DNA from: Mytilus edulis
Taxonomy: Eukaryota
Direction of reading: 5' to 3'
DNA: 64,000 bases
NCBI RefSeq assembly: GCF_963676685.1
Contig: NC_092344.1
Span: 120,280,001-120,344,000 of the forward strand
The position numbers and the translations under genes are program-made. This document shows, in pieces, positions 2,049-59,050 of the stretch; position 1 is the stretch's first letter, and the number at the start of each line of letters is the position of its first letter. The notes beneath the pieces were generated by a model that was not told the origin of the DNA, made no database searches, and was given only the letters and a program-made list of their open reading frames with translations.

Positions 2049-2349
2049 TGTAACATTAAATAATTGTACTAAAATATGTAGCAAGATAGTTACAGATATT
2101 TAAAAATGTAATTAAGGATAAAATAGCAGAATACAGTTATTATGTCTTAAAGGTGCATTGCAATAACAAGTTAATATTGCTCTAGAACATAGGAGCATCG
2201 GAATCCTAATGGTATCATTAGTTCAACTACTGCATCACTGACTTGTCAACACCGATGTTGTAAGTTCATATATAACAAAGGGACCTCGGTAGCCAGTCAC
2301 ACTCGTCCAAGTACTGTACAACTCACTTATTAACACTGAGTTCATATAT

Positions 2350-2513
2350 AAAAGAGGGACGAAAGATACCAAAGGGACAGTCAAACTTATAAATCTAAAA
2401 CAAACTGACAACGCCATGGCTAAAAATGAGAAAGACAAACAGACAAACAATAGTACACATGACACAACATAGAAAACTAAGGAATAAACAACACTAACCC
2501 CACTAAAAACTAG
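2350..2513 (-). mobile_element. Terminal fragment of the Penelope-like element inserted in the 84-bp array
   Basis: aaagagggacgaaagataccaaagggacagtcaaact...acacaacatagaaaactaa is near-identical to 9712-9875. Confidence 0.85.
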
Positions 2514-3436
2514 TTTAACATAGGGACATCGGTAGCCAGTCACACTCGTCAAAGAATTGCACCACTGACTTGTCAAAACCGATGTTGTAAGTTCATATAT
2601 AACATAGGGACCTCGGTAGCCAGTCACAATCGTCCAAGAACTGCACCACTGACTTGTCAAAACCGATGTTGTAAGTTCATATATAACATAGGGACCTCGG
2701 TAGCCAGTCACACTCGTCCAAGTACTGCACCACTGACTTGTCAAAACCGATGTTGTAAGTTCATATATAACATAGGGACCTCGGTAGCCAGTCACAATCG
2801 TCCAAGTACTGCACCACTGACCTGTCAAAACCGATGTTGTAAGTTCATATATAACATAGGGACCTCGGTAGCCAGTCACAATCGTCCAAGTACTGCACCA
2901 CTGACCTGTCAAGACCGATGTTGTAAGTTCGTATATAACATAGGGACTTAGGTAGCCAGTCACAATCGTCCAAGTACTGCACCACTGACCTGTCAAGACC
3001 GATGTTGTAAGTTCGTATATAACATAGGGACCTCGGTAGCCAGTCACACTCGTCCAAGAACTGCACCACTGACTTGTCAAAACCGATGTTGTAAGTTCGT
3101 ATATAACATCGGGACTTCGGTAGCCATTCACACTCGTCCAAGTACTGCACCACTGACTTGTCAAAACCGATGTTGTAAGTTCATATATAACATAGGGACC
3201 TCGGTAGCCAGTCACACTCGTCCAAGTACTGCACCACTGACTTGTCAAAACCGATGTTGTAAGTTCATATATAACATCGGGACCTCGGTAGCCAGTCACA
3301 CTCGTCCAAGAACTGCACCACTGACTTGTCAAAGCCGATGTTGTAAGTTCATATATAACATAGGGACCTCGGTAGCCAGTCACACTCGTCCAAGTACTGC
3401 ACCACTGACTTGTCAAAACCGATGTTGTAAGTTCAT

Positions 3437-3848
3437 TTCTCTAATTTTTGTGCTATTTTCACATTTCCTGACCGGTGTGAGAAAAATATTTCTCCTCACT
3501 AGTGAAAAATCTGTTCTCGGCAAATGATTAGTCGAAATTTGATTATGACGTCAAAATGTTTTGTTTTCTTCTCAATTTTCCTATTGTGACGTCATGGAAA
3601 AAGGCGACCTTGCCTGATGACGTCGCATATAAAGAGCACAATTTTCTGAAAATCTTTGAAAAAGAACGATAAAAAGCATTAGAGAAACAGATTCCGACAC
3701 TATAACTCGTGTATTACGATATTTCTCCACTCTCGACAGTTCAATTTTATTATTTAAAGGGCTCGGCAAGCCTCGCTCTTTAAATAATAAAATTTAACTG
3801 TCTCGAGTGGAGAAATATCGTAATACACTTGTTGCAGTGTAAGAATCT
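3437..3848. mobile_element. Unclassified non-autonomous insertion containing a ~160-bp imperfect hairpin
   Basis: Interrupts the 84-bp array; arms gtgtattacgatatttctccactc...ttttattatttaaag and ctttaaataataaaa...gagtggagaaatatcgtaatacac within ~3689-3848. Confidence 0.6.
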
Positions 3849-6630
3849 ATATATATAACATAGGGACCTCGGTAGTCAGTCACACTCGTCCAAGTACTGC
3901 ACCACTGACTTGTCAAAACCGATGTTGTAAGTTCATATATAACATAGGGACCTCGGTAGCCAGTCACACTCGTCCAAATACTGCACCACTGACCTGTCAA
4001 GACCGATGTTGTAAGTTCGTATATAACATAGGGACCTCGGTAGCCAGTCACAATCGTCCAAGTACTGCACCACTGACCTGTCAACACCGATGTTGTAAGT
4101 TCGTATATAACATAGGGATCTCGGTAGCCAGTCACACTCGTCCAAGTACTGCACCACTGACCTGTCAAAACCGATGTTGTAAGTTCATATATAACATAGG
4201 GACCTCGGTAGCCAGTCACAATCGTCCAAGTACTGCACCACTGACCTGTCAAAACCGATGTTGTAAGTTCGTATATAACATAGGGACCTCGGTAGCCAGT
4301 CACAATCGTCCAAGTACTGCACCACTGACTTGTCAAAACCGATGTTGTAAGTTCATATATAACATCGGGACTTCGGTAGCCAGTCACAATCGTCCAAGTA
4401 CTGTACAACTCACTTATTAACACTGAGAGTTTCAGTTCATATATGACATAGGGCTTTAGTAACCGGTGTCATTAGTCCTACTACTGTATCACTGGCATGT
4501 CAACACGGAGGTTGTCAGTTCATATAATACATAGGGGCCACGGTAGCCAATCACACTTGTTCAACTGATTTTTATAGTTTGTTCATATGTTGTATTGTTA
4601 CACCGCTGTCCCGTTTTTTGTATAAATATCCGAGTCTCCGTACTAAAATCATGAAAAAAAACAACAAGGAAAAAAACATTTCTGTGTGAGAAAAAAAGAC
4701 GATAGAACTTTGAACTTATTAAAAAGATGGCTCATATATAAAACTTCAAAAGAAAACAGGTGTAGCCGCGGAATTCTTTTTCTTGCTATAATCACATTGA
4801 TTTAACATTCCTTTATTAAGGATCTGAGTTATCTCCCCTTATATAGCTAAGATGACAGAAATTGAAATTTCGTATTAATATGAAAAAAACATATCATATT
4901 CTTAAGTAAGATAAAGCGTTTTACACTTTAATAACATTTAAAAACAAACGGAATAAGCATGATAATCAAATATCGAAACCATGGTATAGATAAAAGGATA
5001 TTTTGGTTAAAATGTAACTCCAAAGAAGGTCATATGGATAATATATTATGTTTGTCGGCTGTGCTTAGTTGTAAATCTTGGCATCAACTCATTATTTCCA
5101 CTAATTTCTTCCCTATATACTTTGTCATTTGGCTTATAAATAAGAGAGGCGAAGGATACCAAAGAGACTTTCAATAATAACCACATGTTAATCAAATCGC
5201 CAAATGTAGTTTTGCAGCCCGTTTCCGCACAAGGCATATATATATAAAAAATTAACACGAAACCAATTGATGTCGATATTTTTTTTTTAATTATCCCATG
5301 ACGTAAACAAATACAAAAAAAATATGCAAAATGACAAAACTACTGAACTCGGAGGAAAATTCAAAGTGAAACTCTAGTTGTAGATTATACAAAAGCGTAA
5401 ACCGAGCACATATATTTATTAAGATGGATACACAAAATGCTTCTGTCAACGCTTTTATATCAAATGGATGTAATGCTTACTAAAATGAATAGTGAAAGCA
5501 GATCTGTATATAAATTATTTGAAAACGGACCAGAAATAGACCTGATTGATAAATTGGTAAATGCTTTACGTCAAAAAAGAAAATATAACATACATATTTA
5601 TAACAACGTCTTTATGAGTTGTACCTCCATTGTTCCTAGCATTAAATCGGACTGTCAATGTGCTATTTCACATTGAGACAGTCCCAATACATATGACCTT
5701 TATCGACCGATACGTCTTTTCCTAATGCTACATGCTTTGTGGAGGAGCAGCAATAGCTAATTGTATGGCCATTGTTATAACCAAGCTGGAGCTTGTACAT
5801 ACAACGTATGTTGAATACGGTATCTCGATACCATAAATAAAATATTATCAAAAATAGCAAGGGAGGTTCCCATTTGTATCGAATGCCCTTATATCAGAGG
5901 GGGGAAGTACTCATAGCTATCAATATCTGTAGTTAGGGTATTTAAAGATATGTTTTCTAATATAAAATTTATCTGCATCAAAACTTTGAAGAAAATGTAA
6001 TTTGTAGTTTAAAGGAAATAAATTGGATGCTTGAGTGGTACGAACAAAAATTATAATGAAAAATAAGCATAATGCAACTTCTCCTCAAAGTTAAAGTCTC
6101 TCTTACTTTTTCCCTGCAAACCAGTAAATGTAAATTTCTTTAATTTTTTTAACATCGTTGTTAGTCTTGTTTGGACGTGGCGCGCGTCTGGCGTATAAAA
6201 TTTTAAACCAGGTCCCTGTTATTGGCTATTAATCGTTTGTTTCTCTGTCTTATAGTTTCTCCCATTTATTTGTATTGTAGTTCTGTCATGTTATGTTGTC
6301 GTTTGAATGTTATAATTAACATTGCCATTAAAGCGGGAGGTTTGGCATGCCACAAAACCAGGTTCAACACATCATTATTTTCTTAAAATGCCCTGTTTTT
6401 AGTCGGGGAAATGGCCATTGTTATGTTATAGTTCGTTTCTGTGTGCGTTGCGTTTTGGTGTTGTGTTTCTGTTGTGTCGTGGTTCTGTTATGTTTGATGC
6501 GTTTCCCTCGGTTTTGGTTTTGTGGCTCGGGTTTGTTTTTTCTCTATCGTTTCGGACAACGGTATACTACTGTTGCCTTTGTTGAAACATTTTCTGTTAA
6601 TGACATAAAAGATTAACGACTTTGTGTATG

Positions 6631-9713: not shown

Positions 9714-10888
9714 AGAGGGACGAAAGATACCAAAGGGACAGTCAAACTCATAAATCCAAAACAAACTGACAACGCCATGGCTAAAAATGAAAAAGACAAA
9801 CAGAAAAACAATAGTACACACGACACAACATAGAAAACTAAAGAATAAACAACACGAACCCCACCAAAAACTAGGGGTGATCTCAGGTGCTCCGGAAGGG
9901 TAAGCAGATCCTCCTCCACATGTGGCACCCGTCGTGTTGCTTATGTGATTACAAATCCGGTAAATAGTCTAATTCGGTAGGTCATATTCATGAAAGGGAA
10001 GGGGATTGTAGTTACGACGTAAGGAACATATCCGATATCATTTGTGAAACGGTTATTCTATAACGGTCAACCAACTCGTGATGGCGTCCGTAAAATTTAC
10101 GAAGGGATGATTTCAACTTCACCATTTGGAACTCTTGGTTTAATAGCTTCCTTGTGAGCAGCAAACCTCTATCAAAGAAAATCATGATAGGAAATGCAAG
10201 CACGGGAATATCGTATCAATTGGGAGATATATACCCCGTATGCAGGTGCTGCTGGAATGTTGCTACTTAGAAATGGAAAGTTCACAATTGGAAAGCTGAA
10301 ATCATCTCTTTTGTCGTAAAGTTTTGTTTTCAACCGACCCTCATTGTCAATTTCTAGATGTAAGTCAAGATATGAAGCCGACTTAACTGTATCTGTAGTA
10401 TCCTTTATCTCTAGTTCGATTGGATAGATGCGTTCCACATAGTCACCAAATTTTGAATTGTTTAGTGAAAGAACATCATCTATATAGCGGAACGTAGAGT
10501 TAAAGGATATTGCTAACTTCTTATCTTTCTTCCTAAGAAGTTCCTGCATGAAGTCAGCCTCATAATAATAAAGAAACAAGTCGGCGAGTAGAGGTGCACA
10601 GTTTGTTCCCATTGGAATGCCGACAGTCTGTTGAAAAACACGTCCTCCGAACGTAACAAATATGTTGTCGATCAAGAAATCAAGCATCTTGATAATATCA
10701 GTTTCAGAGAATTTTTTGTTTGAATCAGAGTGATTCTTTACAAAGTAGGATTTATCCCTCCCTAAGACAAGATACTTGTATCTACGTTGGCCATTCTTTT
10801 TTATGAAGCAAAGGAATACCAACTCTTTCAATTTGTCTTTTAGTTTGGAATGTGGAATACTTGTGTACAGAGTAGAAAAGTCAAATGT
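9714..10888 (-). mobile_element. 5'-truncated Penelope-like retroelement; RT pseudogene fragment
   Basis: ORF 10172-10831 has GIPMGTNCAPLLADLFL, FRYIDD, YLDLHL and LYDKRDDF (Penelope-type RT motifs); a frameshift near 10175 leads into DRGLLLTRKLL...; the upstream frame continues DFSTLYTSIPH to ~10888. Confidence 0.88.
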
Positions 10889-14550: not shown

Positions 14551-15116
14551 GTAATTTATGTTATTTGTTTCCGTCATACAATAATAAAGGATTGTTACCA
14601 AAGTTTTAAAATATGTCAACATTCGTAATGTTTAACTGTTTAGTATAGGAAATAAATGATACAAAATGAGTAATAAGGTAAAAAGTTAGACAACTTGAAT
14701 AGCAAATGAATTTAATGTAATTTAAAAATTACATTGGTGAAATGATGTTAGTTAGATTATTTTTTAATTTGATGTCAGAAACTATCATTTTTTTCTTTTT
14801 TTTTAATTTTTTCATTTTCAACCTATCTATCATGATTTAAAGACATATTGAGCATTGTAACTTACCTTAAGAAATATATTGCAAATACTTGATAGTATTG
14901 TGACAGATATTTGAACTACATTTTGGACATTGCTGACGTTACAATTATTAATTAAGACAGACATTGCTAAGCGGCCCAGTGGACACTACGGAGTTTTTCT
15001 GAGCTCTTGCAAAATTTAGATTTTTGAATCATTAGTAACGATAATTTGTCAAATTTCTGAAAGAACAGTATTTAAAACTATTAGTAACCATTATATGGTA
15101 CAATAACTTTGCTCTT

Positions 15117-16403
15117 TTGAGTCTTGGAATGACAAAATCATTGAATTTCGACAGTGCCAACTCAACTGTAAACAAAGAAAAAATGGCGGAAACATATTCA
15201 AAGGTAGTCCAAAATGGTAATAACAACGACATGAGTGTGAAACCAATTTTCTTATTGGAATCAGATATGTTTGGTCCAAAACCCTCTGACAAAGATTTCC
15301 TTTTGCATCACGAACTTTACAAAATAATTGGTCAACTCATACCCTCTTCCCATCTGAGAGCGCTTCAAAGAGTTCGAGGTATGTGGCGAGTCTACACACA
15401 GAGTGAAGACGATCGCAGCAAGCTTCTAATATCAGGAATTGTGGTAAGAGACCGTTTGGTGAATTTTTATTCACAAAACCCTAGATTCCAAGGTAGTGTA
15501 AACCCAGATCACGTTAAAATTCGAGTAAAAGACATTCCATGCTCGGCTGACGATGGTCAGATTACCTATTTCTTAGAGAATGCAGGGTGTAAAATACACA
15601 GATACTTTAGGGAGCGCATACGAGTTGATGGCTTAATAACAAACTGCCTATCAGGAGACCGAATATTTTATTGTGAACCGATGGAACATCCTTTTCCAAG
15701 ACAAGTAACAATAGGAAACTACAGAGCAACAATCTTACATAAAGGTCAGCCAACTAAAAACAGAGACGACATAGTTTGTAAAAAATGCCTCGAAAAGGGC
15801 CACTTCATCAGCAATTGTCCAAATGATTGGACATGTAATATATGTAAAAAATCTGGACACAAACAATCAGAATGTGAAGAGCCCTTTTCAGACAACAACA
15901 ATGAACATAATGAAAACGAATCAACAAACACTGATGATGACAACACAGATTCAGAAACTGATGACAATAACAATGATGAGGCTGCACATGCTCAACAACA
16001 TGAACCTGAAGTTGAACAAATGCAGGACATGCCTAACGAACAATCACAGGAAACGCCTACTCGTGATCTGAAGAAAACTCAAAACAAAAATTCACAAAAG
16101 GTACCTACTCATCAATCTCAACCTTCATTTCAATCAATCACCAATGAAGAGAATGACGAATATACAGGAGATGCAGCAACACCAAGTTCTAAAAAAGCTA
16201 AAAAAAAATCTGGTAAAAAGAAGACAACTTGTCAAAATGATTCGAAAGACGAAAAACAAAGTTCAATGCAACAATTTCTAGTTGAGAAACAAACCAGTGC
16301 AACCACTCCTGGAAATAAAGTCTCAAAAAGGTCTGCAACAACTCCTACAACGGACCTTTTCGATAGAGAGAATCAAACAACCAAACCAAAAACACAAAGT
16401 TAA
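15117..16403 (+). CDS. LINE ORF1p (gag-like, two CCHC zinc knuckles, acidic low-complexity C-terminus); true start probably ATG 15129 or 15183
   Basis: CKKCLEKGHFISNC and CNICKKSGHKQSEC (CX2CX4HX4C); position 5' of ORF2. Confidence 0.9.
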   Translation: MSLGMTKSLNFDSANSTVNKEKMAETYSKVVQNGNNNDMSVKPIFLLESDMFGPKPSDKDFLLHHELYKIIGQLIPSSHLRALQRVRGMWRVYTQSEDDRSKLLISGIVVRDRLVNFYSQNPRFQGSVNPDHVKIRVKDIPCSADDGQITYFLENAGCKIHRYFRERIRVDGLITNCLSGDRIFYCEPMEHPFPRQVTIGNYRATILHKGQPTKNRDDIVCKKCLEKGHFISNCPNDWTCNICKKSGHKQSECEEPFSDNNNEHNENESTNTDDDNTDSETDDNNNDEAAHAQQHEPEVEQMQDMPNEQSQETPTRDLKKTQNKNSQKVPTHQSQPSFQSITNEENDEYTGDAATPSSKKAKKKSGKKKTTCQNDSKDEKQSSMQQFLVEKQTSATTPGNKVSKRSATTPTTDLFDRENQTTKPKTQS

Positions 16404-16418
16404 AAAGGAGAAATAAAC

Positions 16419-17698
16419 ATGTATAAACAATTATGTAGCTAACTCCTTTTTTTTTCTGTTGGTTTATCATCTCTATATACTTTTTTGCTTACAATGATTT
16501 GTTTGTATATATTTTTATTATTATTCTTACATATATGTATGACAAGCATATTCCTAAAGGTAAACAACCACCTTGAAGACAATGCTTTTTATGTAAATTT
16601 TAAAAAAAACAGTAAAAATACCAAAATATGTAGCGATGATTGTGATGGAATATTAGATTTCATACTTTCAAGAAGTAATAGAAAGAAGAGTAAAATAGAA
16701 AAGAACTGTAATGTTGTATGTTATAACATAATGTCAAAGAGTAATAGAAAAAAAAATGTATTGGTTTGTGTTATCAACTGGATCATGCAAATAATACACA
16801 CATAATTAAAGAATGTTCTTTAATAAACAGACCTATACACAATAAATATCTAATAATATTCCATAAATTTGCAATATCGATTCCTTTATGTATGTATTAT
16901 CATACTAGAAAGAACAGTTTTCAAACAAAATATAACTTCCAACAGTTTTACTGGAGTAAGAATCTCAAAATTCCAATCTTATGCAGCTGGGAAAATAAAT
17001 CCATGAATCAACCAGTAATCCAGCAACATTTAACTGCAGATCATAATTACATCTGGAAAAAAACACACTGTACATGTAAATTCGTTCGTATTAACTTTTG
17101 GCTTCAATATATTGCATCACTATACAAATACACGCACAGATATAGATACTGGGAAGGAATTCCTAGTCAAAATCCAGCAATAGTATTGCTCACACACGTA
17201 TGTATTCTTGTAAAAGTCTTCAGCATCACTAAATCCAAGAGTTTTAGTCTTCTTGTGAAACAAGAAAATTTATCCTGTTACCAAATGGTGTCGAATATAT
17301 CCGAAGTACCTACAAAAATAAAAACAAAATTGATACAATCAACTTCAACTAAAACAAAACATAGCAATATAAGTGCATTATTAGAACCAATAGAATTCAA
17401 CAGAACAAAAACAATTAATAGAAATTACATGAGCAAACTATGGCTATTTATAGATGTGGGAAAATCCCTACACAAATTATTTAAAACATGTACACCTTTC
17501 CTGAAATGGTGTCCAATTTTTAAGATAGATAAAATATATATAAAAGATCATGTATTTATTATATGTATAGTTATTATTATCATGTTAAATATACTGTTGT
17601 TCTTAATATATATATATATTTTCTTTACTATGCATGTTATTGTTGTTGTATACATGTATGTTTGTCAAATGTATTTAGTTTTAAAATACTCGCTTTAA
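16419..17698 (+). other. Putative additional hydrophobic ORF inside the LINE between ORF1 and ORF2 (one stop, one frameshift)
   Basis: 310 stop-free codons (16766-17698) in very AT-rich DNA; overlaps ORF 16485-16805 at an A9 run; hydrophobic N- and C-terminal segments. Confidence 0.5.
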
Positions 17699-17719
17699 GC
17701 TACAAAAAATATAAGAATA

Positions 17720-20700
17720 ATGAATAAAACTTTACATATCTGTTCCTTAAATTGTCAAGGACTAGGCCAAAAAGAAAAAAGAAATAGGCTTTATACATGG
17801 TTAAAATATCAAAAAACAGATATACTTTTTATCCAAGAAACTCATTTTGTTAAAGAAATAGAAAATAAAGTAAGTAATGAATATGACGCAGATATTTTTC
17901 ACAGTTTTGGCACAACACAATCAAAAGGAGTAGCTATATTTATTAAAAAAACAATAAACCCAAAGATAATTGATACTTTTACTGATCAAGAAGGTCGCAT
18001 AATTCTTGTAAATGTTGAAATAAACAACAACATATTTTCTTTAATAAATTTATATGCACCTAATGAGAAAAAAAAGCGAAACATCTTCTTTAAAAATGTA
18101 AATAAAATAATTGAAGAACATAGTCTCGGAATTTTAGTAGTAGGGGGAGATATGAATGAAACATTGAGTAGTACAGATAGAAAGAATAATAATAAAAAAA
18201 GAGAACAAAAAATTACAAATAGTTTGAAAACTTTAATAAAAACAAACAAACTAGAAGATATTTGGAGACAATTACATCCGAAACTATATCAATATACATG
18301 GAAACGTAAAAATAAAGACGATGAGGCAAGTAGAATAGATTATTTTCTAACGGGTAAGGAATTGAGAACTATGATAAAGTCTACAGATATAAGACCAGCC
18401 CTAATTTCTAGTACAGACCATCAGGCAATTTCATTGAAAATTAACATGTCCAATGATAATAAGGGTAAAGGGTTCTTTAAAATAAACAACAGCATACTAA
18501 CTGACAAATCTTATAAAGATAAAATAGAAAAAGTTATAGACTATTTTATACTTAAAAGCAATTACACTGAAAATTTATCACAACTATGGGACCTGTTTAA
18601 AATTGAAGTAAGAGAATCAACGATACAGTTTTGCAAAAATAAATCTAGGCAAAGGAAAAATGAAATTCAAAATTTGGAAAAAAAACTTCAAACATTACAG
18701 AAAAGAAAGGATAATAATAAACCAAGTGAAGTAGAAAAGAACGAAATCAATTTATTAGAAAGTGAGATAGAATCTCTTTATAGTTATAAAGCAAAAGGTG
18801 CACAAATACGTTCAAGAATAAAATGGATAGAAGAAGGGGAAAAGAATTCTAAATTTTTTCTAGGATTAGAGAAAAGTAGACAAACAAGAAAAAATATAAT
18901 AAATTTAAAAAACGATAAAGGGGAGATAATTACAAAACAATCAGAAATACTAAATTTAGAAAAGAAATATTATGAAAAGCTTTACACAAGCACTAAACCA
19001 GATAAAAATTTTATAAACACATATATTAAGGATACAAATATTAAACAATCATTAAGTAAAGAAGAAAGCAATTCTCTAAATGGACTTCTATCAACAGAAG
19101 AATGTACAAAATCAATTTTTCAAATGAAATTAAATAAATCCCCAGGCCTAGATGGACTCTCAGTAGAGTTTTATAGAGAATTTTGGGACAAATTAAAGAA
19201 TTATGCAATTCAAAGCTTTAATTATTGCTATAAAAAAGGAATGTTATCTGAATCACAAAAAATAGGCCTAATTTCTCTAATATTTAAAAAAGGAGACCCC
19301 ACTGAATTAGGTAATTACAGACCAATTACACTATTAAATGTTGATGTTAAAATTATTGCATATACATTAGCCCAAAGATTAAAACCTGTGATGTCAAAAA
19401 TTATCCACAGTGACCAAAATGGATACATTAAAAACCGTTATATAGGTTTTAATATACGTCAGATACAAGACATTATAGATCATGCAGAAAAGTTAAAAAT
19501 AGATGGAGCTATACTTTTTCTAGACTTTTCCAAAGCCTTTGATTCCCTAGAGTGGGAATTCATGTATCAATCACTAACAAAATTTGGTATAGAAAATTCT
19601 ATGTTAAGATGGGTCAAAACCTTGTATGCAGATATCAAGGCATGTATTTCTAATAATGGATGGATTTCAAGCCCACTGAATATTTTTAGAGGAATTCGAC
19701 AAGGATGTCCTTTAAGCGCCATTTTATTCGTCTTTGCAGTCGAAATATTAGCCTGTAGAATAAGAAACGACAATAATCTTAAGGGAATAAATATAAAGTT
19801 AGATGGAAAAACGCACAGCCTTATAATAAGCCAGTTAGCTGATGATACTACATTGTTTCTCTGCTCTAAAGATGAAATCTCTCAGTCATTTAATATAATT
19901 GAAGTATTTGGTTCTCTATCAGGACTTATTTTAAATCGAAGTAAAACTGAAGGATTAGGTTTTGGAAAATTAAAACATATTCAAGACAATTTTGAGAATA
20001 TTAACTGGAGCAAAGAGACTGTTAAAAGCCTTGGCATTCACTTTGGATATAATAAATCTCAATGTATGAATTTAAACATAGAAAAACAACTTCAAAAATC
20101 TGAAAAAATTCTTAACTCATGGAAAAAAAGAAAGCTAACAATGATCGGAAAAGTAACTGTCGTGAAATCTCTAGTTATACCAATATAACATATTTAGCTT
20201 CTGTAACTGATATCGACAAAAATTCACTATTTAAGTTTAAAAAAATGATTTATGAATTCATTTGGGACCATAAAAAAGAAAAAAATTAAAAGAAAAACAA
20301 TTAACATGAAAAAAACTGAGGGAGGACTTGGAATGATAGATATTGACAAGTTTATTAATGCAATAAAAATTAAATGGGTAAAAAGATTAATAGAAGGTGA
20401 ACAGTCAAATTGGAAAATTATTCCCACATTATACTTTAATCAATATGGATCAAATTTTTTAATATTTCACATGAATCTGGATAATTTAAAATCAATAAAT
20501 ATAAAAAACAACAAAATCCCTAATTTTTACTTTGAAATACTTAAAACCTGGGTAAAATATGGCGGTGGTCAAACTAATAAACCAGAAAACTTTAGAACCA
20601 TTAGACAACAAATTATATGGGGTAACAAATACATAAAGTTAAATGGGCACAGTTTAGTTTTTAATCATTGGATAAAAGACAACATAATCTATGTAAATGA

Positions 20701-21520
20701 CATAATTGATGACAGAGGAAGAATATCAAAAGAAAAAATACTCAATAAGTTAAAATGTAAAAGAAATTGGATTGCAGAAATAATACAAATAAGAAAGAGC
20801 ATACCAAATCATTGGAAAGATATATTACAAAAACAAAACTCATTAAAAACTATTGTTAATTGTAAAAAACAACTATGTTTAAAACAAGGCGCAATTATAT
20901 ATGATTTACAAAAAATTAATAATAAAGATATTTATGTCATCTTATCTAATGTAAATAAAGATATTCATATAGGGTTTACAAAATGGCGGAAAGAACTAAA
21001 TATAGATAAAATTCAACCAAAAATTAAATACACATTAAATTTTATTTTTAATTATTTAGAAGACAATAAATTAAAAATGGTTCGATGGAAATTATTACAT
21101 TATATACTACCTGTAGGTACACATCTTTTCACATGGAAAATTAAAAACGCCAATCTGTGTTCAGTGTGTGGGATACCAGATACTTATCAACACAATTTCA
21201 TGGAATGTACTTATTTTAAAGTTTTTTGGAATAAAATTTGTATTTTATTAAATAAGCTTCATATTGGTGAGCATATAGTTACTTTAAAACACTTAGTAGT
21301 AGGATATAAAATAGAAGAGGACTCATTAAATGATATTAATTATCTCCTGACAGTCATCCTATTCACTCTACACAAATGCAATTGTATTTCAAATAATAAA
21401 ATAAATCAAGTTAATGTTTATGAAATATTTAAACAAGAATTTAAATACAGATATCATCTGATGGAGTATAGAAATAAAACAATAAGTAAGATGCTTAAAA
21501 ATATTCAAAATTATATGTAA
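17720..21520 (+). CDS. LINE ORF2p: APE endonuclease, reverse transcriptase, C-terminal zinc motif; two compensating 1-nt indels near 20182 and 20280
   Basis: APE motifs SLNCQGL, IQETH, NLYAPN, GGDMN, SRIDYF, TDH; RT motifs KSPGLDG, YRPITLLN, LDFSKAFD, GIRQGCPLS, QLADD; CSVC..H..C. ORFs 17720-20188 and 20252-21520 are in the same frame. Confidence 0.93.
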
Positions 21521-22775
21521 TTGAAATGTATACAATTGTGTGGTGTGATAATCAATAGCTACATGTATGCTAGATTTTATATTGTACATGTATGTTGTAG
21601 TTGTTGGTTTTTCATTTTTTGTATGTAAAAACAAACCAAACAAGACACTTTATTTAATGTAATATATAAAACTAAAATGATTATAATTCAACACTGATTT
21701 GTTAAATTTACACCGAATATCATCAAGTAATATATTGTGTGTATGTTCACTTTGTTGGTATCAAATCACATGTTAAAATCCTTATTCTTTCTATTATATT
21801 TCCAGAAACATCTAATCTTTTTCACTTTAGATACATTTATTTTGTTTCTATGACAAAATCGTTAACGAATAACACTTACCAAACAAGTTTTATCTAATCC
21901 AAAAATTTATTTTCACAACAAACATGTGCTTCCTTTTGCACTAGCTTTCGGACAATGATTTGTAACTAATCCAGCACAAAAGGTCAAAGATGTAAACACG
22001 GGACGATGAACACAAATTCGGAAGGCAAAATGATGTTCCGTAAACACGTGATTTATACTATGAAATTTTATTGTTAAATATGTATATACACTGTATTTAA
22101 AAGAATGTGTATGTGATATATATAATTAACACTTTAATACTTAAGTATACTTTACTGAACTTTTCCCTGGAAATTCAGTAACTAATTACAGGGATACTCG
22201 GGCTAACGCTGTAATCCGAGTAAATTGTTAAAGCAGCAGATATATAATAAAAGATATTTACTTTGAAAAAAAAAAAAAAAAAAAAAAAAACAATTATTAA
22301 TTAAATTTTATTTAAATAAGAAAGATAATTATTTTGTTAATCAATATGTATATTGTGGGATAATGCCAACAGTTCTCTGGTCATTTAAAGATTATTTATT
22401 ACCAAAGTCAAAGTGAAAATATTTGTTTTACCTTATTGTTGTTTGTAACTGTTTTGTATTATTTTGTTTTTATTTATTTTATTAAAAAGTTTGAACTACG
22501 CCCGGCCTGCCTATACAGCGGCAGCAATGCCATACACCATCGAAGGCAATGTTCCCAGCTTGTTTCCCCCAGCATGTAACAACAAAATACCAACTCTCAC
22601 AGAGTCCTTCTTCTGTTGAGAGAAAATGGGTCTGCAAAGAACAACTAACTCTGCAGACCAACATACTACTACATAACATCGACAATACGAAGATCAACAA
22701 CTTCTTGATATAATAATAGTATGACTTAATCTTTGCATTTGATATGTAAACATGAACACTTGGGGACTTTAAAAT

Positions 22776-32989: not shown

Positions 32990-34252
32990 TTATTTCGTAC
33001 CTAACTTTTCGATGTTATAAAGTTTAACATGGTTGCCATCGATTTCCGCTGCAAGAATTTTCAACTCTGGTTGGTAGGCAATATATCTCGGTCTTTTAAC
33101 TCTGCTGTCCTCGTCAAGGAGATGGTAAATCAATCCATCAGTTGTATTCATCTGATATATTCTGTTGACTTCACTGCTTGCCACGAACAGAATATTATTG
33201 AACATAACGATGCCCCGTGGACTCCTGACCTTCACTGACCAACATAAATTCCCCTTAAAATCAACACTGTGAATGGATTCATTTACAATATCTACAACGA
33301 ATACGGTCTTTTTCACAAAGTCTAGTGCGAGACGTATAGTATTGCCAGTGAATTGCCCAAAGCTTCTTGTATTTCCGGGTATGACAAACAACTCCTTTCC
33401 ACCCAATTCATAAATACGAATGGCACCATCTTCCCCTTCTCCACTCTCTACGGCAAAATGTTCCTTATGATATGCAATACTGTATGGTTTTTCTTTTACT
33501 TTGAATGTTTTATAAGTACGTATCTTATTATCAATTCTAAAAATTCTTATCTCCTTTTTATCAGCAATAGTAACCGCTATTAGATCATTTGGTGTGCTTG
33601 CAATACCTCTAGGATCGTCTTTCAGTTCTCTTGCCATTTCAAATTTTAGATCACGTTTGAATAGCTTCAAACTTCGATTTTTGTAATCAGCAACGACAAT
33701 TTTACCGTCAGACAGAATTGCTATTCCTCGGACTCGTGTAACTTCTTTATCAGCCGGAGCAGAGCTCATTAATTCATTCGCAAATTGTCCCCTAAATGGC
33801 CCGTTATCTTGTACTTGTGCTTGAAATGAGTCATCACGATGTTGAGTAAATGCCAGTGACCTGCGATTGTCGCTAACACTTTGACGATCGGAAACTACTG
33901 ATATGGTTTCATCTATTGGTAGTTGTTTAGCCGCGATTGCGATATGATGTTTCGTTGCTTTAAGTGACGAATGTTTGTTCGTACAGTTGGTACAAAGTAA
34001 CTGTTTGCAGTCGATACACAGACTTACTGCTGGTTCACCACAGTCATTACCACAATTGGCATTCACTGAGCTTAGATTTAAGTCGGTTATGTCGTGTGAT
34101 GCATCTACCAGGATATGTATGCGAGTAGACTTCAGTTTTCTGTGGTACAACGTGCAATCGTGACAAAATGCTTGGTCACAATTTGCACAATATACTTCTA
34201 AGGTTTCCGTAACTTCATCACATCCATCGCAGACTTTTGAAACTGTTGCCAT
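32990..34252 (-). CDS. TRIM-like protein A: two B-box zinc fingers plus NHL-like beta-propeller (420 aa, single coding exon)
   Basis: CDGC..CANCDQAFCHDCTLYH..H and CGNDC..CIDCKQLLCTNCTNKH..H; propeller blades VRGIAILSDGKIVVAD, PRGIA, PYSIAY, PRGIV, PRYIAY; ATG lies 2 nt after a catttag acceptor (34255). Confidence 0.9.
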   Translation of the reverse strand: MATVSKVCDGCDEVTETLEVYCANCDQAFCHDCTLYHRKLKSTRIHILVDASHDITDLNLSSVNANCGNDCGEPAVSLCIDCKQLLCTNCTNKHSSLKATKHHIAIAAKQLPIDETISVVSDRQSVSDNRRSLAFTQHRDDSFQAQVQDNGPFRGQFANELMSSAPADKEVTRVRGIAILSDGKIVVADYKNRSLKLFKRDLKFEMARELKDDPRGIASTPNDLIAVTIADKKEIRIFRIDNKIRTYKTFKVKEKPYSIAYHKEHFAVESGEGEDGAIRIYELGGKELFVIPGNTRSFGQFTGNTIRLALDFVKKTVFVVDIVNESIHSVDFKGNLCWSVKVRSPRGIVMFNNILFVASSEVNRIYQMNTTDGLIYHLLDEDSRVKRPRYIAYQPELKILAAEIDGNHVKLYNIEKLGTK

Positions 34253-35465
34253 ATCTAAATGATAAACAAAAACCACACTAGAATGGTTTAGATAACTTAC
34301 TATTTCTATTGGACGATTTGCAGCTTTTTTAAAGCAGCATGTTTATCAGAGTCATAATGACGCTGATCGTCAACATTGTAAATAAAAAACAAAACGACGA
34401 AACTCAAAGCTAACTAACGATATCAAAATCTAAGAGAAATAATGGAGACATATCATCAAAATGGGGAAATTAAACATTACTTCCAAATATATTTGAATTG
34501 AATGGAGAAACATGGCCTTTTCACAGTTCTATCGTTCAAAGCCTCGTATGTCTAACGTGATTTGAACTAACTTTTGCATACCATTAGGTATTAGCAATAA
34601 AAAAAAATGATATAAGGTACCATTAAATTATATCTGAATATCACAATTGAATAATAGATCGACTCAATTATTCTATGTAACAGCAATAATAGCGTCTGGT
34701 GTATATACAAGGTTTAGTAGTGGTATCTATGATATATGTTTAAATAAAAATTAATAAATCGAAACATCTCACTGGCTGCATCCGTTATTTTAAATAATAT
34801 ATTAAATAAAAGAGAAGTGTACCTATCTGCTTACCTTTTTAAATCAGTTATAACATACCATTTGTGTTTGGTTAGATTTTAAATGTATATGTATCAATAA
34901 ATATATTATATGCATTCATCTATTTAAAAATACATAGGGTTAGAAGAGAAAACGATATTTTAAAAGTTTACCTTTCTCAGAATCTGAGGTTTACCAAATC
35001 AAAAACATTCCAGTAATGGATGAAAATATTGTCAGTTTAAAATATGATGAACCTCCCACTAACAATTTTAACCTAACAATCATCCTTTACAAATAGTGTA
35101 TGCATTTTGGTGCTTGATCGCACATGAATGATCTTCTTAGAGCATGGATCGTGTAACCTGATATAACAGTTGTTTGCATTAATCTTCACTAAGAACATGC
35201 AAACCCCATGCAATATTTAAAACCAAAGTGTGTAATAATATTGAAGGCCCGACGACCTATATGACCGTACAGACCTACAAATAATAGACGGGTCCATCTA
35301 AAGTCTAAAACTTTCAGTAAATATCAGGTTTTTCTTTTTCAAAAGTCAATATAACCATATATGGTTGCTGCTCATAATTAAGCTATGGTGTTTGTGTTGT
35401 TTAAATTTGTGTTATCTTGTGTTTGTTTGTTTGTGTTTTTAGGATTTTTATATTTTGTATAGCTT

Positions 35466-37393: not shown

Positions 37394-37920
37394 AGATCCA
37401 AATAGTTATAAAGCCAAACAAGTAGAAGGTCGAAGAGCATTCAGGACCCAAAATTCCCAAAAGTTGAAATCATATTATTAACTCTTAATATCTATTAGTG
37501 TAAATATAAAGACTCGTTGTACTCACTGTATGTATAATTTACCTTCGACCATGCGCTGGTATTCGGGTTACAAACCCGAAAATGATCAATATATTGATAG
37601 TAAATATGATTTAACGTAAATGTTTGTTACAAGGAAAAACAGATTTTCCAGTTTTATTTTTAAAATTTACCTGTGAAAAACGAACCTCAATTTCAATACA
37701 AGAAATTTATACAGGTGACGCCATATTGTTAAACGTAAAAGTAAACAACTCTCTGTGTTGCAACCTACATGTAAGTCCAGTAGTACCTATAAGCGGTAAG
37801 TTTATTCGGGAATCAATTATCAACATTACCATAGACTTTAATCAAAATATTAATGAAATTCAATGCTCAAACTTTGTTTTATCAAAATTTATTAAATCAT
37901 TTTTTATTTTTACTGTAGGA

Positions 37921-39171
37921 ATGGAAGCTGCATCAACAGCTTGTGATGGCTGCGAAAAGGATGAAAAGGTAGAATCATTTTGCGTCAATTGTGAGCAGCT
38001 TTATTGCCCTGAGTGCACCGCTTATCATATGAAATGTAAAGCGACACGTTCCCACGTCTTATTAGATGCATCACATCTTGATACAGATATAACTCACGCT
38101 TCAACTGATGTCCAGTGTGGCAATGAATGCGGAGAGCAGGCAGTAGTTCTTTGTCTAGACTGTAAACAGTTACTTTGTGACAACTGTACACAGAAACATG
38201 CAAGGCTTAAAGCAACCAAAGAACATTATGCAATAACCGCGAAACAACTCGCGAGAGACGAAACAGCATCTTTAACTTCCTTTGGTGCTTACTCTGAAAG
38301 AACTTCTATAGTTTCACGTCCAAAGGAACTAGTGCATGCACAGGTTCAAGTTGAGAAAGGTCCACACTCGGGTATATTTGCACATGAGTTCATGAGTTCC
38401 GCTCCAGGAGACAAAGAAGTAACAAGAGTTCGTGGAATAGTAATTCTTTCCGATGGCAGAATTATTGTTGCCGATTATAAAAATCGGAGTTTGAAATTAT
38501 ATAGCAGTGAATTGAAATTTGAAATGGCAAAGGATATAAAAGAGGATCCAAGAGGAATGGCTGCTTCTGCTAACGATTTTGTAGTAGTCACTATTGCTGA
38601 TAAAAAGGAAATAAAAATATATAAAGTCGAACATAATAAGATACGTACTCACAAAACGATTAAAGTGAAAGAAAAACCTTACAGTATTGGTTATAATAAA
38701 GACCACTTTGCTGTTGAACACGGTGAGGGAGAAGATGGCACAATTCGTATTTATGATCAAAACATTAGAGAAATGTGTGTCATACCGGGTAATACCAGAC
38801 ACTTTGGACAATTCACTGGCAATACAATACGCCTTGCCTTAGATTATACAAAACAGGTCATATTTGTAATCGATATAGTAAAGGAGTCGGTTCACTGTGT
38901 CGATTTTAAAGGTGGTCTGATCTGGACAGTGAAAGTCGGAAGTCCTAGAGGAATTGTGTTCCACAACAATATTCTGTTTGTTGCCAGCAGTACAGAAAAC
39001 AAGATAATCCAGATGAATGCTGTCGATGGATTAGTTTACTCTATGTTAGACGAAGACAATAGAATTAAGCGTCCTCGTTACATTTCCTACAATCCTGATT
39101 TGAGGAAACTTGCTGTTGAAATCGACGGCAACCATATAAAGCTTTACAACATTATCAAATGTGACAAATGA
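37921..39171 (+). CDS. TRIM-like protein B: two B-box zinc fingers plus NHL-like beta-propeller (416 aa, single coding exon)
   Basis: Clear paralogue of 32990-34252 (shared DKEVTRVRGI, VADYKNRSLKL, GEGEDG, FGQFTGNTIRLALD, EIDGNH); ATG lies 2 nt after a T-rich ctgtag acceptor (37918). Confidence 0.92.
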   Translation: MEAASTACDGCEKDEKVESFCVNCEQLYCPECTAYHMKCKATRSHVLLDASHLDTDITHASTDVQCGNECGEQAVVLCLDCKQLLCDNCTQKHARLKATKEHYAITAKQLARDETASLTSFGAYSERTSIVSRPKELVHAQVQVEKGPHSGIFAHEFMSSAPGDKEVTRVRGIVILSDGRIIVADYKNRSLKLYSSELKFEMAKDIKEDPRGMAASANDFVVVTIADKKEIKIYKVEHNKIRTHKTIKVKEKPYSIGYNKDHFAVEHGEGEDGTIRIYDQNIREMCVIPGNTRHFGQFTGNTIRLALDYTKQVIFVIDIVKESVHCVDFKGGLIWTVKVGSPRGIVFHNNILFVASSTENKIIQMNAVDGLVYSMLDEDNRIKRPRYISYNPDLRKLAVEIDGNHIKLYNIIKCDK

Positions 39172-47011: not shown

Positions 47012-47187
47012 GACCATATCAAATACAATCATTCGTTTACCTTCTACTAGTAATAACATGGCCTATAAGAAGTATAAAGTATATCAATATTCATAAGAAT
47101 ATAAGAATATAAATGGGATAGCTGCAGGAAAAATTAATGGAATACATTCAATTGTTATAAACCAAGGACGAAAATTCACATACTTAC

Positions 47188-47533
47188 TGGCTTTTCTAAA
47201 CATCATGTATTGTTCTGCACAATTAAATTTGCGACCATCAACTGAGAACTCTGATGGATACCATTGACTAAATGGCGAACTTTGTCTAAAGAAATACACA
47301 AAGCTATCTGTTTCTTTGTGCCCAAAGTCCCCACGTGGTTTGTTCATGACTGATTTGTGTCCACTTCCTGTACGTTTATTGTAAGTTGGTGAAGAACTCC
47401 ATCGGTCCCAGTCTCTGTATCCCCAGTTCATATTAGAGTAACCCCAGTTACCATAACAACCAGGAAACATATACGCGTTATATCCACCAGTCTGGAGTCT
47501 GTTATTACGTCGTTTGTCTGTATATGCCGTCAT
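47188..47533 (-). CDS. NADAR-domain protein 2, coding exon 1 (spliced product 240 aa)
   Basis: ATG directly after a tttgcag acceptor; FVYFFRQSSPFSQWYPSEFSVDGRKFNCAEQYMMFRKA; GTAAGT donor at 47187; probable 5' UTR exon ending at 47598 (GTAAGT). Confidence 0.9.
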
Positions 47534-50500
47534 CTGCAAATTAAAGTATTTTATACTAATAAATTATATAAGATTTTAGATTGAAAGAACGACTTACCGT
47601 TTAGTCTGAGAGGAGACATTACGTCTTATGTTCTGTGTAGGGTGATAGACACTATTCACACTTGCAACAATTAACTGAATAGGCCGTAGCTATCCCTTAT
47701 TGAAAGCAATTTTTCGACATGTAACATGCATTTCAAAGAGGGAGACGAGAGCAACGTATAATTAATTTTTTAAACATAGATAAAGGCCGGGAAATAAGAA
47801 AGTCGTCAGGTAAAATGGTAGTGTTTAAGAATAGAGGAGAAATGTTTTATAGCAATGGTTAAGCTTCTGACCGACCCTCAAAAAATTGTTGCAAGGATTT
47901 TAAAGACATGAAAAAAGAGGGGGACTCAATTTGCCCCTCTCCGACAGGACTTAACTATTTACAAAATCTGAGACTACTATAACACATGTGTCATAGACAA
48001 AATGGAAAGTAAGACATTTATCATGCATCCCATACACCTACTTAAATGACTATCACTTCGACCCTTTATCAGTTTATGGAAACGTTCACTAGACCATATT
48101 TGTATATCCAAGTCAAAATTCGTGGTCTCTTGCTGGTGTTACAGTGTACATGATATATCAAATTGTTTGATTGATTGCCATTGACCAATAGTCCAGATTG
48201 GTTTGCTCTTTTACCATCAATATTTTAATTGCAAGGCGACTCCGTTTTTAATATTACTTCAGATGTCATGTTTTCGGATTCTTGATATACGTCTTTATAG
48301 TAGCTACGATTTGGTCAAAATTTTAAAGCTGCTAAAATAAAAGATAATTATGAACTAAAAATAAGCAATAACATCGCTAGAATGTTTTCATAAACTACAG
48401 AAGTGTTTAAAATTGATAATTCATATCGTCATACGCAACTATTATCAGCACTCGCAGTGCGCATGCGCTAAATTTGATCGCAATCGATATCGATAAATTT
48501 ACTATAGATTATTAAAGGAAATATTGAATTTTGGTTAGCTGACAGTAAACAAAAATAAATATCTTTTTCATTGGCATCACATTAGAAAATACATTTTCTT
48601 AGCTTTCTAATGACATATTTTATAATTGAATCGGGATAGCAGAAGTTACGGCCATTTTCATTTTAAAAAAAGTGGTTCATTCCCTATTACTTCATACAAT
48701 TCAAAATCAAAAATGTTTGCAAAGGAGTTTTCATATATGATTACATCTTTCACTATTTTTAGAAATAAATTCATTGGCATAAATATATATTCTTTGCTTT
48801 ATAATCTTTCCAATGATATATATTTGATATTTTAGAAAATTTAATGAATCGGGGCCTTTTTTATCCAAAACTGGAGTTATTGTCATTGTTTGAAGATTGC
48901 GAGAAAAATTCTAAGTCCATGGAAGTATTATATTGATATAGTACTTCCATGGTCCTACCAAGTAAATTGCTCGATCACAAGTCACAAAACAAAGTTTAAT
49001 CTATTTGCATATAAAATATTTATACATTTAATACAAAGTTTTATATCATGAATTTAAAAATTCAGTAAATAAAGTAAAAGAAGTGTAACTTTTAATTTAA
49101 AAGAATTTCTTTTGTCCAGCCGTCAGTTTTCTTTATTTTTGATAATATAAAATCTTTCACTACTACATTAACTCAGACTTTTGGATGTTTTTCGTGAAGC
49201 GTATTAAAAAAATTGAAATCCCATCTAAAATGATTTTTTTTTGTTGCAATTTTTTTACATATCTTTTTAAAAGTTTTTTTTTAAATAATTAGGCGGCCGT
49301 AACTAAACAATTTTGATACTTAAACATGCTCATCTGATTTACATAGAAGTAATAGATACATATTTTATATATATTATTTTCATGTTCTAAAAAGACCAAT
49401 TAGTTTTGAAGAAACAGGAAAAGTGTCATTATCTTAAATTTTTCAGATGCAGTAACACTTTCAGAAGATCATTTGTAGTAGATGGATTTGGAATGAAATC
49501 TTAAACGTCAAATTTTCTTTCATCAATTTTATATATATATATATATATATAATTAATTTTAATTTGTCTCTCTCCTTTTAGAAGTTTCTATCGGGAAATA
49601 TATTTAATTTTATACTTGAACATTTATGTAAAATTTGTATTAAAAAGGAAACTTATTTTAATTTTTGTATTGTTAAGGTAAAGTTTACGGAGAGCTGTCT
49701 CATTGGAACTCATACCAACTCATCCCCGGAAATCTTCTTGCATTTATATTGTACATGTATTTGCAGATTTTTTTATTTTTTTCATTTATCGAATGAATGA
49801 GATAGTTGGAATCGTTAAAATTTAGTATTGTACATGCTAACAGATGCCTGCGACCCCTGTTGTTTCGATTAGCATGTTTTCTAAAGATATCCGTGTGAAG
49901 TTCACAAATTTCATCATTCATTTGATCACCTGTTGTGAATTTCAGATAACACTGTCAAGTTCAGTCAGTTCCGTGGTTTAAACTTTCCTATACATATCAG
50001 TAATATTATTTTCTGGGTAGGGTATTCCCCCCCCCCTTTTTTATATATTATACTCGGAACATTATTGTAAACACTTTTTCTGCGGGACTTTCTTTACGGT
50101 TTTAGGAAAATTTGAGAATATCAGTATATAAATTCATTAGTATGTGCTTCGATTGGCTTATATCTATATAAAAAAAAGTAATCTAAGACTATATCATTAT
50201 TGTAAGTGAGAGACCTTTCCATCCATCAACGAACATGTGAAGCGTGCATAAATATTGTTGAAACTGAGAAATATGTATTGGTATACTGTCCATTCTAAGA
50301 TCACCCGCAAACTGATCTTTTATAGAAAAACTTTGTCACTTCGGAACATCCAAACTTTAAAAAAACAATCCAATTTGAAAAATTGTCTATTGTTTTATAG
50401 GTAGGCAGTGAATGTGATAGAAGTGCCAAAATCTGCAATCTTATTTTACATAGAAGACGCTGCTTTTCAAATCGTTAAACAGTTTGTCTTAACTGAAGAC

Positions 50501-52920: not shown

Positions 52921-54134
52921 ATATTAACCTATGACATGGTTCATACAAAATGAAACTGAAGACATGCTACATCTCCCCAGGGGGAGGGCACTTCCTACAT
53001 ACAAGGTGACAGGACGTGTCGCTGGAAAATGTTACATTTTACTTACGCATTACATAGGTATTCATTTTTAAAATCTAAATTATATGAAAACTAAGGGTGG
53101 GGTAACAGAACTCCAGCGGCAACCCCTATCAAATAAGTAATGAGGTAGCAACCCCCCCCCCCCCCCCCCCGTCACTTGAAATGCCTGTGCTTCCCCTCCC
53201 CCTTGAGAGATCAGTTTTGAACATACAAAATAACGGGTCAATATACACATGTCAACTTAAGTCTTCAGTAAAGATGAAAGTCATTTTTGAGATTTGTAAT
53301 AGGTGCTTTAGAACTGGTGTTTGACCGCTGGAAATAATCTGGAAGGGATGTTTTATTTTTAAATCAATCTTTACAATGTCATAATGATGTATGACCTTTC
53401 AAATTTAAATTAAATTCGGTCTTAATTACCTTTGTGGTAGTTTTGTCCTTTCGTTCTCATGCACGATGCTGTGAAGGGGAGTTTTAGAAAGGGGAGTGGA
53501 ACTGATATTGTGACTTCAAGAACGTCTCATGGTGGAAGCTGAAAACAACACGTCGTGTGAAACTATCAGGTTCCGATAATCAGATCTCGATAATTAGATA
53601 TGAGTAAATGTATGATATTTTACTGTCGATTACAAGTATTTGTAACTACAAAAGTGAATTAAAAAGAAGGACGACCGTTGACATTAAGAATTATGCGAAA
53701 TATCTTTTATTTTCCAAGATATGCACGGCTTTGCTTTGCTTTTGTTTTTGTGTTCCTTTGGTTTTTTTTATTTTGTTTTTCTAAGTTTTTTGTCTTTCTG
53801 TTTGTTTTTATTTTGGGGTTGGGTGGTATTTTTTTTATTATTTTTTTTAGATTTTTAGGGGATGTAAAGAGTTGCTTTGAAAATGGTGGAAAGTGTAGCT
53901 GATTTTTTTTTTAATAATGAATTAGATCACATGTCATCATTAGAAACATATCATGTGGAATTGTGTCAGTATCCAATATGTGTATAATTTTTGACAAACG
54001 ATAATATAGTTCATTTATAGATTTTTTTAAGTAACCCCCCCCCCCCCCCCCACACACACACACTAATGCGAAAAAAGGAGCTTGTCGTCGTTTCCCAAAC
54101 ACGAAATGCATTCTTCGATGAATATTTAAAACAT

Positions 54135-58621: not shown

Positions 58622-59050
58622 CTGAAATTAAAATCAAGTTGAATATTAATTACATCAAATAATTCTGTTTGTAAAGATGCATTTTGCTTACTTTTCCTCA
58701 TTCAATAAATTGTACATGTATAAATCAAATTAATGAGTAAAAATAAATATTAGCAATGAGATGATAAACAGAAAACATATGAATACAAATTCAAAGTACT
58801 CTTTATAAGAATGAAAACAAATATGCAAAATTGGCAATATTAATATAGCACAGAAAGAAGTAAAAGTAAGTACATTTGTACTAGTATATGAAAGGAATTA
58901 CTTTTCTAATGACATACACCTTTGCTATAGGTCATGACAAACATCTGTGTCAAAATTGAGTGACCAGTGAGTTGTATGGAAAGTATATAAGAGACATTTG
59001 TGATTTACTATTCTGTAGTGTGAAGCAATGTGATAAAGAAAACGCTTCTC

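Follow-up and report, generated by a model that had tools for sequence, protein, structure and literature searches.

A third reading frame kept open between ORF1 and ORF2 in a clade of L1/Tx1-type LINEs of Mytilus edulis, with little selection on its protein

Human LINE-1 and the L1-Tx1 elements of molluscs carry ORF1, an ORF2 that encodes an AP endonuclease and a reverse transcriptase (APE/RT), a poly(A) tail and a target-site duplication (PMC10294476). In L1 of fish, frog and lizard the two ORFs are separated by spacers of 257–1,032 bp, across which internal ribosome entry sites (IRESs) have been proposed and reinitiation has been called risky (PMC5381506). In megabat L1, removal of the spacer AUGs lowers retrotransposition 3.3-fold, and shuffling of the spacer lowers it 8.8-fold (PMC4072516). 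Long AT-rich spacers persist in fish, frog, lizard, basal mammals and megabat although they are expected to be costly. These studies propose IRESs or small ORFs and found no common structure, and they leave open both how ORF2 is translated across long non-mammalian L1 spacers and why such spacers persist (PMC5381506, PMC4072516).

Termination-reinitiation is described for SART1, in which it depends on an RNA structure located 3′ of the ORF1 stop (Kojima 2005, via PMC10275272); reinitiation following long ORFs is listed for viruses and SART1 (PMC10275272). On the opposite strand, HeT-A has an antisense promoter in its 3′ UTR and makes a spliced non-coding antisense RNA, the splicing of which is ascribed to likely cryptic sites in these telomeric elements (PMC2615633). 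TART of Drosophila also produces spliced antisense RNAs (PMC1636488), and in mouse L1 antisense transcription from a promoter in ORF1 limits retrotransposition (PMC3985663).

The element analysed here lies in a 64,000-nt stretch of the genome of Mytilus edulis (contig NC_092344.1, positions 120,280,001 to 120,344,000; the window), of which it occupies positions 14956–22289. It is a decayed 7.3-kb copy of a LINE of the L1/Tx1 type. Like the human and molluscan elements it has ORF1, an APE/RT ORF2, poly(A) and a target-site duplication, and as in the L1 group the AP endonuclease is N-terminal and the reverse transcriptase akin to that of L1 ORF2p. A phmmer search with ORF2 gave human L1 ORF2p as top matches (E 2e-101), with R2 at 7e-26. 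The N-terminal 234 residues of ORF1 share 99% identity with a protein labelled Mytilus edulis, and its CCHC knuckle (PF00098, PF13696) is a trait of the Tx1 clade, with which an ORF1 of this type is consistent (PMC5203782). In a quick tree, which includes no named Tx1 reference, the 25 families described below form one clade (SH-aLRT 100), separate from 11 metagenome elements. RNA reads of the unoccupied site, from three runs, depart from the window sequence at 14955, so the insertion is polymorphic. ORF2 of the window copy is frameshifted near 20181 and near 20278 (the intact ORF2 of sibling copy L116 has 1,266 aa). Together with two single-base deletions in the third frame, these defects mark the window copy as decayed or as containing assembly errors.

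The clade differs from human LINE-1 and the molluscan L1-Tx1 elements (PMC10294476) in that it adds a third sense ORF of 202–473 codons, here called ORF-X, and an antisense intron that lies over ORF2. The L1 group is characterised by two sense ORFs only, whereas 23 of the 25 families contain at least one full copy of ORF-X. Compared with the vertebrate and megabat L1 spacers, the spacer of this clade has one long frame, a hairpin supported by covariation and an antisense splice acceptor that is conserved. No third sense ORF appears in the extracts of PMC5203782, PMC7140322, PMC11203168 and PMC10294476, and none between ORF1 and ORF2 of an L1/Tx1 element is described in the literature searched; notes in Repbase and Dfam, subscription journals and supplements were outside its scope and may mention one. 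The coordinates of the features are collected in Table 1.

Table 1. Features of the element, in positions of the window.
Feature	Position	Strand	Remark
Target-site duplication, 5′ copy, 15 bp	14941..14955	+	Identical 15-mer at 22290-22304; element begins at 14956
ORF1, 424 aa, CCHC zinc knuckle	15129..16403	+	Pfam zf-CCHC (PF00098, PF13696)
uORF, 7 codons	16419..16442	+	Start codon of the initial annotation; TAA in 6/6 full copies aligned
ORF-X, third frame, 411 aa in intact siblings	16494..17727	+	Broken in the window copy near 16748 and 17625
Hairpin: lower stem of 3 bp, bulged G, upper stem of 7 bp, loop of 5 nt	16641..16666	+	Covariation
Antisense 3′ splice acceptor, polypyrimidine tract and TAG, within the spacer	17310..17330	-	
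Antisense GT-AG intron, 4,570 nt	17310..21879	-	Excises the whole ORF2 complement
ORF2: AP endonuclease, reverse transcriptase, zf-RVT	17720..21520	+	Pfam; best PDB match human L1 ORF2p
Antisense 5′ splice donor, TTG/GTAAGT, in the 3′ UTR	21874..21882	-	
E-box CACGTG, upstream of the antisense donor	22045..22050	.	Candidate antisense promoter element
Poly(A) tail and 3′ copy of the target-site duplication	22266..22304	+	Tail 22266-22289 (24 nt), then duplication 22290-22304

The gap between the stop of ORF1 (16403) and the start of ORF2 (17720) is 1,316 nt long. The initial annotation had considered that a long stop-free frame in this 1.3-kb gap was unlikely to arise by chance, and this holds: 316 codons are free of stops (16748–17698), a length matched in 0/5,000 base shuffles and 0/9,000 Markov simulations. 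The ATG at 16419, which had been taken as the start of the long frame, opens only the uORF of Table 1, and the long ORF starts at ATG 16494. Five sibling copies have full-length spacers, 95–99% identical, and in three of these (L002, L003 and L005) an intact ORF of 411 codons runs from ATG 16494. In the intact copies the stop of ORF-X overlaps the ATG of ORF2 (ATGAATAA). The apparent shift of frame at an A9 run (16748–16756) had been read as either a slippery site or an indel. All five full siblings have one extra base there and are in frame, as do contigs from three of four public runs, so the shift is a deletion specific to the window copy. A programmed −1 frameshift is rejected for the same reason. 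A second one-base deletion, near 17625, is absent from all six siblings and alters the C-terminus of ORF-X in the window copy; in the intact copies the ORF has a C-terminal hydrophobic run of ~29 residues.

The occurrence of ORF-X was surveyed over the genome (1.37 Gb). Eighty loci were fetched from the 150 best endonuclease and the 150 best ORF1 matches, the spacer not being a criterion; four without an ORF1 match in the stretch were dropped. An ATG-started ORF covers at least 80% of the gap in 57 of the 76 loci kept. These fall into 25 spacer families, with spacers of 0.6–1.4-kb. Among copies with an intact ORF2 (n=45), 41 have a full ORF; in two others a pair of ORFs tiles the gap, and the last two carry a single frameshift. 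The first ATG of ORF-X is found 1–21 codons past an upstream in-frame stop, and the fraction of A ahead of it is 0.58, compared with 0.39 for internal ATGs. At the other end, the ORF-X stop ends between −47 and +69 nt relative to the ORF2 ATG, and for 11 of 23 families it lies between +4 and +8 (at +8 in seven of the 23), so that there is an upstream stop near a downstream AUG, as looked for in termination-reinitiation. In one family, three copies with intact ORF2 have the ORF-X stop 134 nt early. One family has, in all six of its copies, a common stop that divides the frame into an ORF of 49–53 aa and a downstream restart at a new ATG, 30 nt beyond the stop in four of the copies; ORF2 is intact in three of the six.

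Metagenome contigs hold more distant elements, with ~30–40% ORF2 identity, several of which have an L1-like coiled-coil ORF1. Eleven were chosen by eye among 24 with upstream sequence, and three of the eleven have no clear ORF2 start. Seven of the remaining eight (two being one family) have an ATG-started ORF of 53–100 aa that ends at the ORF2 start, and these middle ORFs exceed the lengths found in shuffles (p<0.05). A search of a viral collection gave one distant locus. A further metagenome contig (L190) has spirochaete-like FlaA genes beside an L1 fragment, and is probably chimeric.

Throughout the clade, the frame of ORF-X is under selection to remain open. Neutral simulation of eight family pairs leads one to expect 3–49 stops per pair, and none is present, and when nine pairs are aligned as DNA without regard to frame, 40 of the 52 indels have lengths divisible by three; the pairs for both counts were drawn from full-ORF copies, which biases them toward an open-frame result. 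The protein, on the other hand, is hardly selected, and its amino acids evolve near-neutrally. The pooled DNA-guided dN/dS of five pairs is 0.87 for ORF-X and 1.02 and 0.89 for the off-frames, and in the same comparison 0.11 for ORF2 and 0.07 for the N-terminus of ORF1. Protein-guided values are 0.53–0.86 in eight pairs and are significantly lower than 1 in just two of these, both deep (0.54 and 0.55), for which alignment bias is expected. Codons 1–30 give a dN/dS of 0.43 (LRT 3.5, not significant). The residue frequencies are near those of a stop-free random model from base composition (Cys 4.5% vs 4.0%), and a compensated frameshift of 11 codons separates two subfamilies. The initial annotation had named free accumulation of stops and frameshifts, with a dN/dS near 1, as the outcome that would speak against its third ORF. 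The dN/dS is as this outcome predicted, but stops and frameshifts do not pile up. The part of the proposal that finds support is an open frame under selection between ORF1 and ORF2; a Cys-rich membrane accessory protein is not supported.

It is worth adding that in 5/5 family pairs the spacer shows less synonymous divergence than ORF2 does, which may reflect nucleotide-level constraint, recombination or bias in the selection of pairs.

The sole motif common to the ORF-X proteins has invariant third codon positions, and is an RNA stem-loop (the hairpin of Table 1). When ten families are aligned, which requires no gaps, 92% of the cells are paired and eight of 14 pairs show a compensatory change; the paired fraction or covariation score was equalled by 0/500 shuffles, and slid controls gave 22–59%. 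There are 10 occurrences of G-U and three of A-C, which points to a hairpin in the sense RNA. The model built from the ten families matches three additional, diverged families (E 2e-4, 2e-3 and 0.19) and one that is near-identical to a training family, bringing the total to 14 of 25. A search of the remaining 11 families with this model turned up no convincing match, and 14 metagenome loci gave none (best E 2). A degenerate pattern searched genome-wide gave 34 matches, every one with complementary arms, and a control pattern gave none. Rfam has no match anywhere in the element.

The spacer also provides an exon on the other strand. Evidence of antisense splicing comes from three studies, of which the runs X3 and X5 are presumed to be RNA, and the splice signals give the strand. 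In one contig of run X3, position 17309 is joined directly to 21880; moving the cut by +3 on the joint 17306–21877 gives CT..AC ends. The same junction appears as a loose end in eight raw RNA-seq reads of run X24, which come from a copy that has diverged further. Run X5 has a contig with non-element sequence joined to the same acceptor, so that host read-through uses it too, and two X3 contigs link other non-element sequence to the donor (window 21878–21880), which therefore may also splice into flanking host sequence. The antisense contigs end at 16613–16651. Five X24 molecules, which may be duplicates, start at 16428, 11 nt past an AATAAA. No joint from sense splicing of the spacer was seen in eight runs of low depth, and in public runs the spacer is thinly covered by sense RNA.

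The best-scoring antisense acceptor is at 65–85% of the spacer in nine of the 14 families of the hairpin clade and in none of the 11 others, and within this zone it aligns to the nucleotide in six of eight family pairs. It is kept in 6/6 sister pairs, compared with 2/14 for other antisense acceptors and 3/39 for sense acceptors; outside the hairpin clade, antisense acceptors are unaligned in five of six pairs. Its strength is no higher than in slices of ORF2 (12.1 vs 11.7). The donor is kept in all 11 sibling 3′ ends, and a strong antisense donor is present in 15 of 20 family 3′ UTRs (3.3 expected), against two of 20 on the sense strand; three short 3′ UTRs are without one. The same 3′ UTRs contain CACGTG in 10/20 (0.6 expected) and CCGGA in 11/20 (2.6 expected), which we take to be an E-box and an Ets site. 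Judged from these sequences, the antisense RNA would be made by the element itself, from a promoter in the 3′ UTR. The antisense promoter of HeT-A sits in the 3′ UTR (PMC2615633), as the putative one would here. Unlike the sites in HeT-A, the acceptor of the window clade is homologous over families with ~55–75% spacer identity, and lies inside an open sense frame.

Some other roles for these sequences were considered and rejected. The longest ORFs of the modelled spliced antisense RNAs are 33–99 aa in seven families and 36 aa in the window, and are not conserved, which argues against a coding role. A sense poly(A) signal after ORF1 is not a feature of the clade (14/23 families, 15.0 expected), and an antisense poly(A) signal at the start of ORF-X is not supported (10/23, against 11.9 expected in local shuffles).

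We think it probable that the third frame is a translated bridge for the reinitiation of ORF2, across a spacer that is kept for RNA-level signals. One sense RNA would thus have three cistrons, ORF1, ORF-X and ORF2. Ribosomes finishing ORF1 would reinitiate at the ORF-X ATG and traverse the spacer by translating ORF-X, the polypeptide being largely a by-product; those terminating at the ORF-X stop would reinitiate at ORF2, and the double step would hold ORF2p low. A stop in mid-spacer would leave the ribosomes hundreds of bases short of ORF2, barring a new ATG as in the split family. The range of stop-to-ATG offsets and the stops that come 134 nt early imply that coupling is not strict overlap. 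It is likely that the spacer is not deleted because it holds signals on both strands, namely the hairpin and the antisense exon. The 3′-UTR promoter would yield an antisense RNA that skips ORF2 and damps the element's own RNA. In animals, reinitiation following long ORFs is normally rare. SART1 has, as here, an upstream ORF stop that overlaps or adjoins the ORF2 AUG; there the upstream ORF is ORF1, whereas in the window clade an extra, sequence-free ORF would provide the coupling, with two reinitiations (PMC10275272). If the bridge reading is true, the yield of ORF2 should fall when stops are placed in the spacer frame but not when the frame is recoded.

Other readings were considered. ORF-X could be a functional, very fast-evolving membrane or secreted accessory, for example in counter-defence, on which purifying and positive selection both act; the initial annotation had suggested a Cys-rich protein, possibly an envelope-like or membrane-targeting accessory. 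The first 35 residues are hydrophobic in 17 of 23 families, against 37 of 207 other blocks, but the C-terminus is hydrophobic in only nine of 23; the hydropathy of the window family, with a signal-like start and a C-terminal hydrophobic run, would fit a type I topology. The dN/dS values of codons 1–30 and of the two deep pairs would also agree with such a protein. However, the pooled dN/dS is indistinguishable from that of the off-frames and the composition tracks base content, while the range of lengths, the compensated frameshift and the common split in one family speak against a functional product. The N-terminal hydrophobic run is underlain by a T-rich tract at +15 to +45 (T 50–55%), T being high at all three codon positions, and frame +1 is equally hydrophobic (0.82 vs 0.85 in ORF-X). 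The AlphaFold model of ORF-X is helix-only and of low confidence (pLDDT 45), with no confident domain. No homologue of the protein P0001 was found among 3,084 candidates, none of 23 ORF-X proteins has a Pfam match, and a profile of 12 of them run against 1.8 billion sequences gave seven matches, by eye all near copies of the input families. We regard an accessory of this kind as unlikely; the suggested Cys-rich membrane protein is not supported. The more specific proposal of a captured viral envelope or fusion glycoprotein, which would make the LINE infectious, is largely excluded, and we give it hardly any credence. It would suit the signal-like start, the C-terminal run and a cluster of Cys residues, and in the ESM Atlas the clusters nearest to the window-family protein are viral glycoproteins (best score 0.80, recognition 1029). 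But these values are at the level of shuffled proteins and a sister family has no match, so this lead was dropped; a viral Foldseek search, for which the query was a poor model, gave no match at E<=0.001. There is no conserved Cys pattern in the ORF-X alignment, the single invariant column over 12 families falls in the RNA hairpin, and the topology differs between families. A glycoprotein with a conserved folded, disulphide-bonded ectodomain was rejected on the basis of this one invariant column, the dN/dS of 0.87 and the pLDDT of 45. ORF-X is a caution against labelling such ORFs membrane proteins.

It could also be that the N-terminus alone matters, with a signal-peptide-like start by which the LINE RNA docks at the endoplasmic reticulum while it is translated, the remainder being a tether that ends at ORF2. 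The hydrophobic start common to 17 of 23 families can be seen by eye in the middle ORFs of the distant L1-type elements, in the split family the 53-aa piece retains it, and codons 1–30 have the lowest dN/dS; the run is nevertheless the U-rich tract already described, which is hydrophobic in frame +1 too, and we consider this reading quite improbable. A further account has the frame translated so as to keep ribosomes on the RNA, to avoid nonsense-mediated decay or to clear antisense RNA or structure, with ORF2 started independently, for example at an internal entry site. This would explain the open frame and neutral sequence equally well and would tolerate the loose stop positions, and IRESs are predicted in long vertebrate L1 spacers (PMC5381506). 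It leaves unexplained why 11 of 23 families have their stops clustered at +4 to +8 of the ORF2 ATG, and also the like arrangement in the distant L1-type elements, and the identity between sister families is not clearly higher in the final spacer bins ahead of ORF2. We judge it rather unlikely, and prefer reinitiation by way of the translated third frame.

A wider proposal can be made tentatively, and is possible rather than probable. Long LINE spacers might be a two-strand regulatory module, with on one strand an antisense exon that skips ORF2 and on the other the hairpin and a sequence-free third ORF, used by double reinitiation on a tricistronic mRNA; the same bridge in the distant L1-type elements may be an ancestral way of translating ORF2. 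The M. edulis genome offers 25 diverged natural versions of such a spacer. ORF-X would be an unusual case, in which selection acts on translation itself and almost not at all on the product, and it would thus be a standing source of long random-sequence polypeptides, of relevance to de novo gene birth.

Some observations on the 3′ end may be noted. In most families a conserved element precedes the poly(A) signal (at ~22150–22260 in the window, and in L297–L316). It consists of CCCTG...CAGGG followed by two more complementary pairs, and looks like a pseudoknotted RNA that might serve in recognition by ORF2p. L122, L148 and L162 have one different tail in common although the ORF2 tree separates them, a pattern suggestive of 3′-end swapping. 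The 3′ end (L303) of the C14 copy L116, in which all three ORFs are intact, has poly(A) just 163 nt past the ORF2 stop and is therefore without the antisense donor region, possibly as a result of premature polyadenylation.

The rest of the window contains several other features. Two inverted ORFs with B-box and NHL repeats, of 450 and 518 codons, are found at 32990–34342 (−) and 37615–39171 (+), their DNA being 69% identical. A tandem repeat with 84/42-nt units at 2235–4564 has long open frames on both strands, and a tandem array at 59015–61335 has a period near 49 nt and a strong G skew. Reverse-transcriptase fragments occur at 10172–10888 (−) and 54130–54642 (+), and from their residues are presumably Penelope-like. 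Finally, there is an ORF at 47084–47563 (−), the middle of which we take by eye to resemble a NADAR/YbiA-type domain; in the metagenome locus L179 a similar tail is fused to ORF1.
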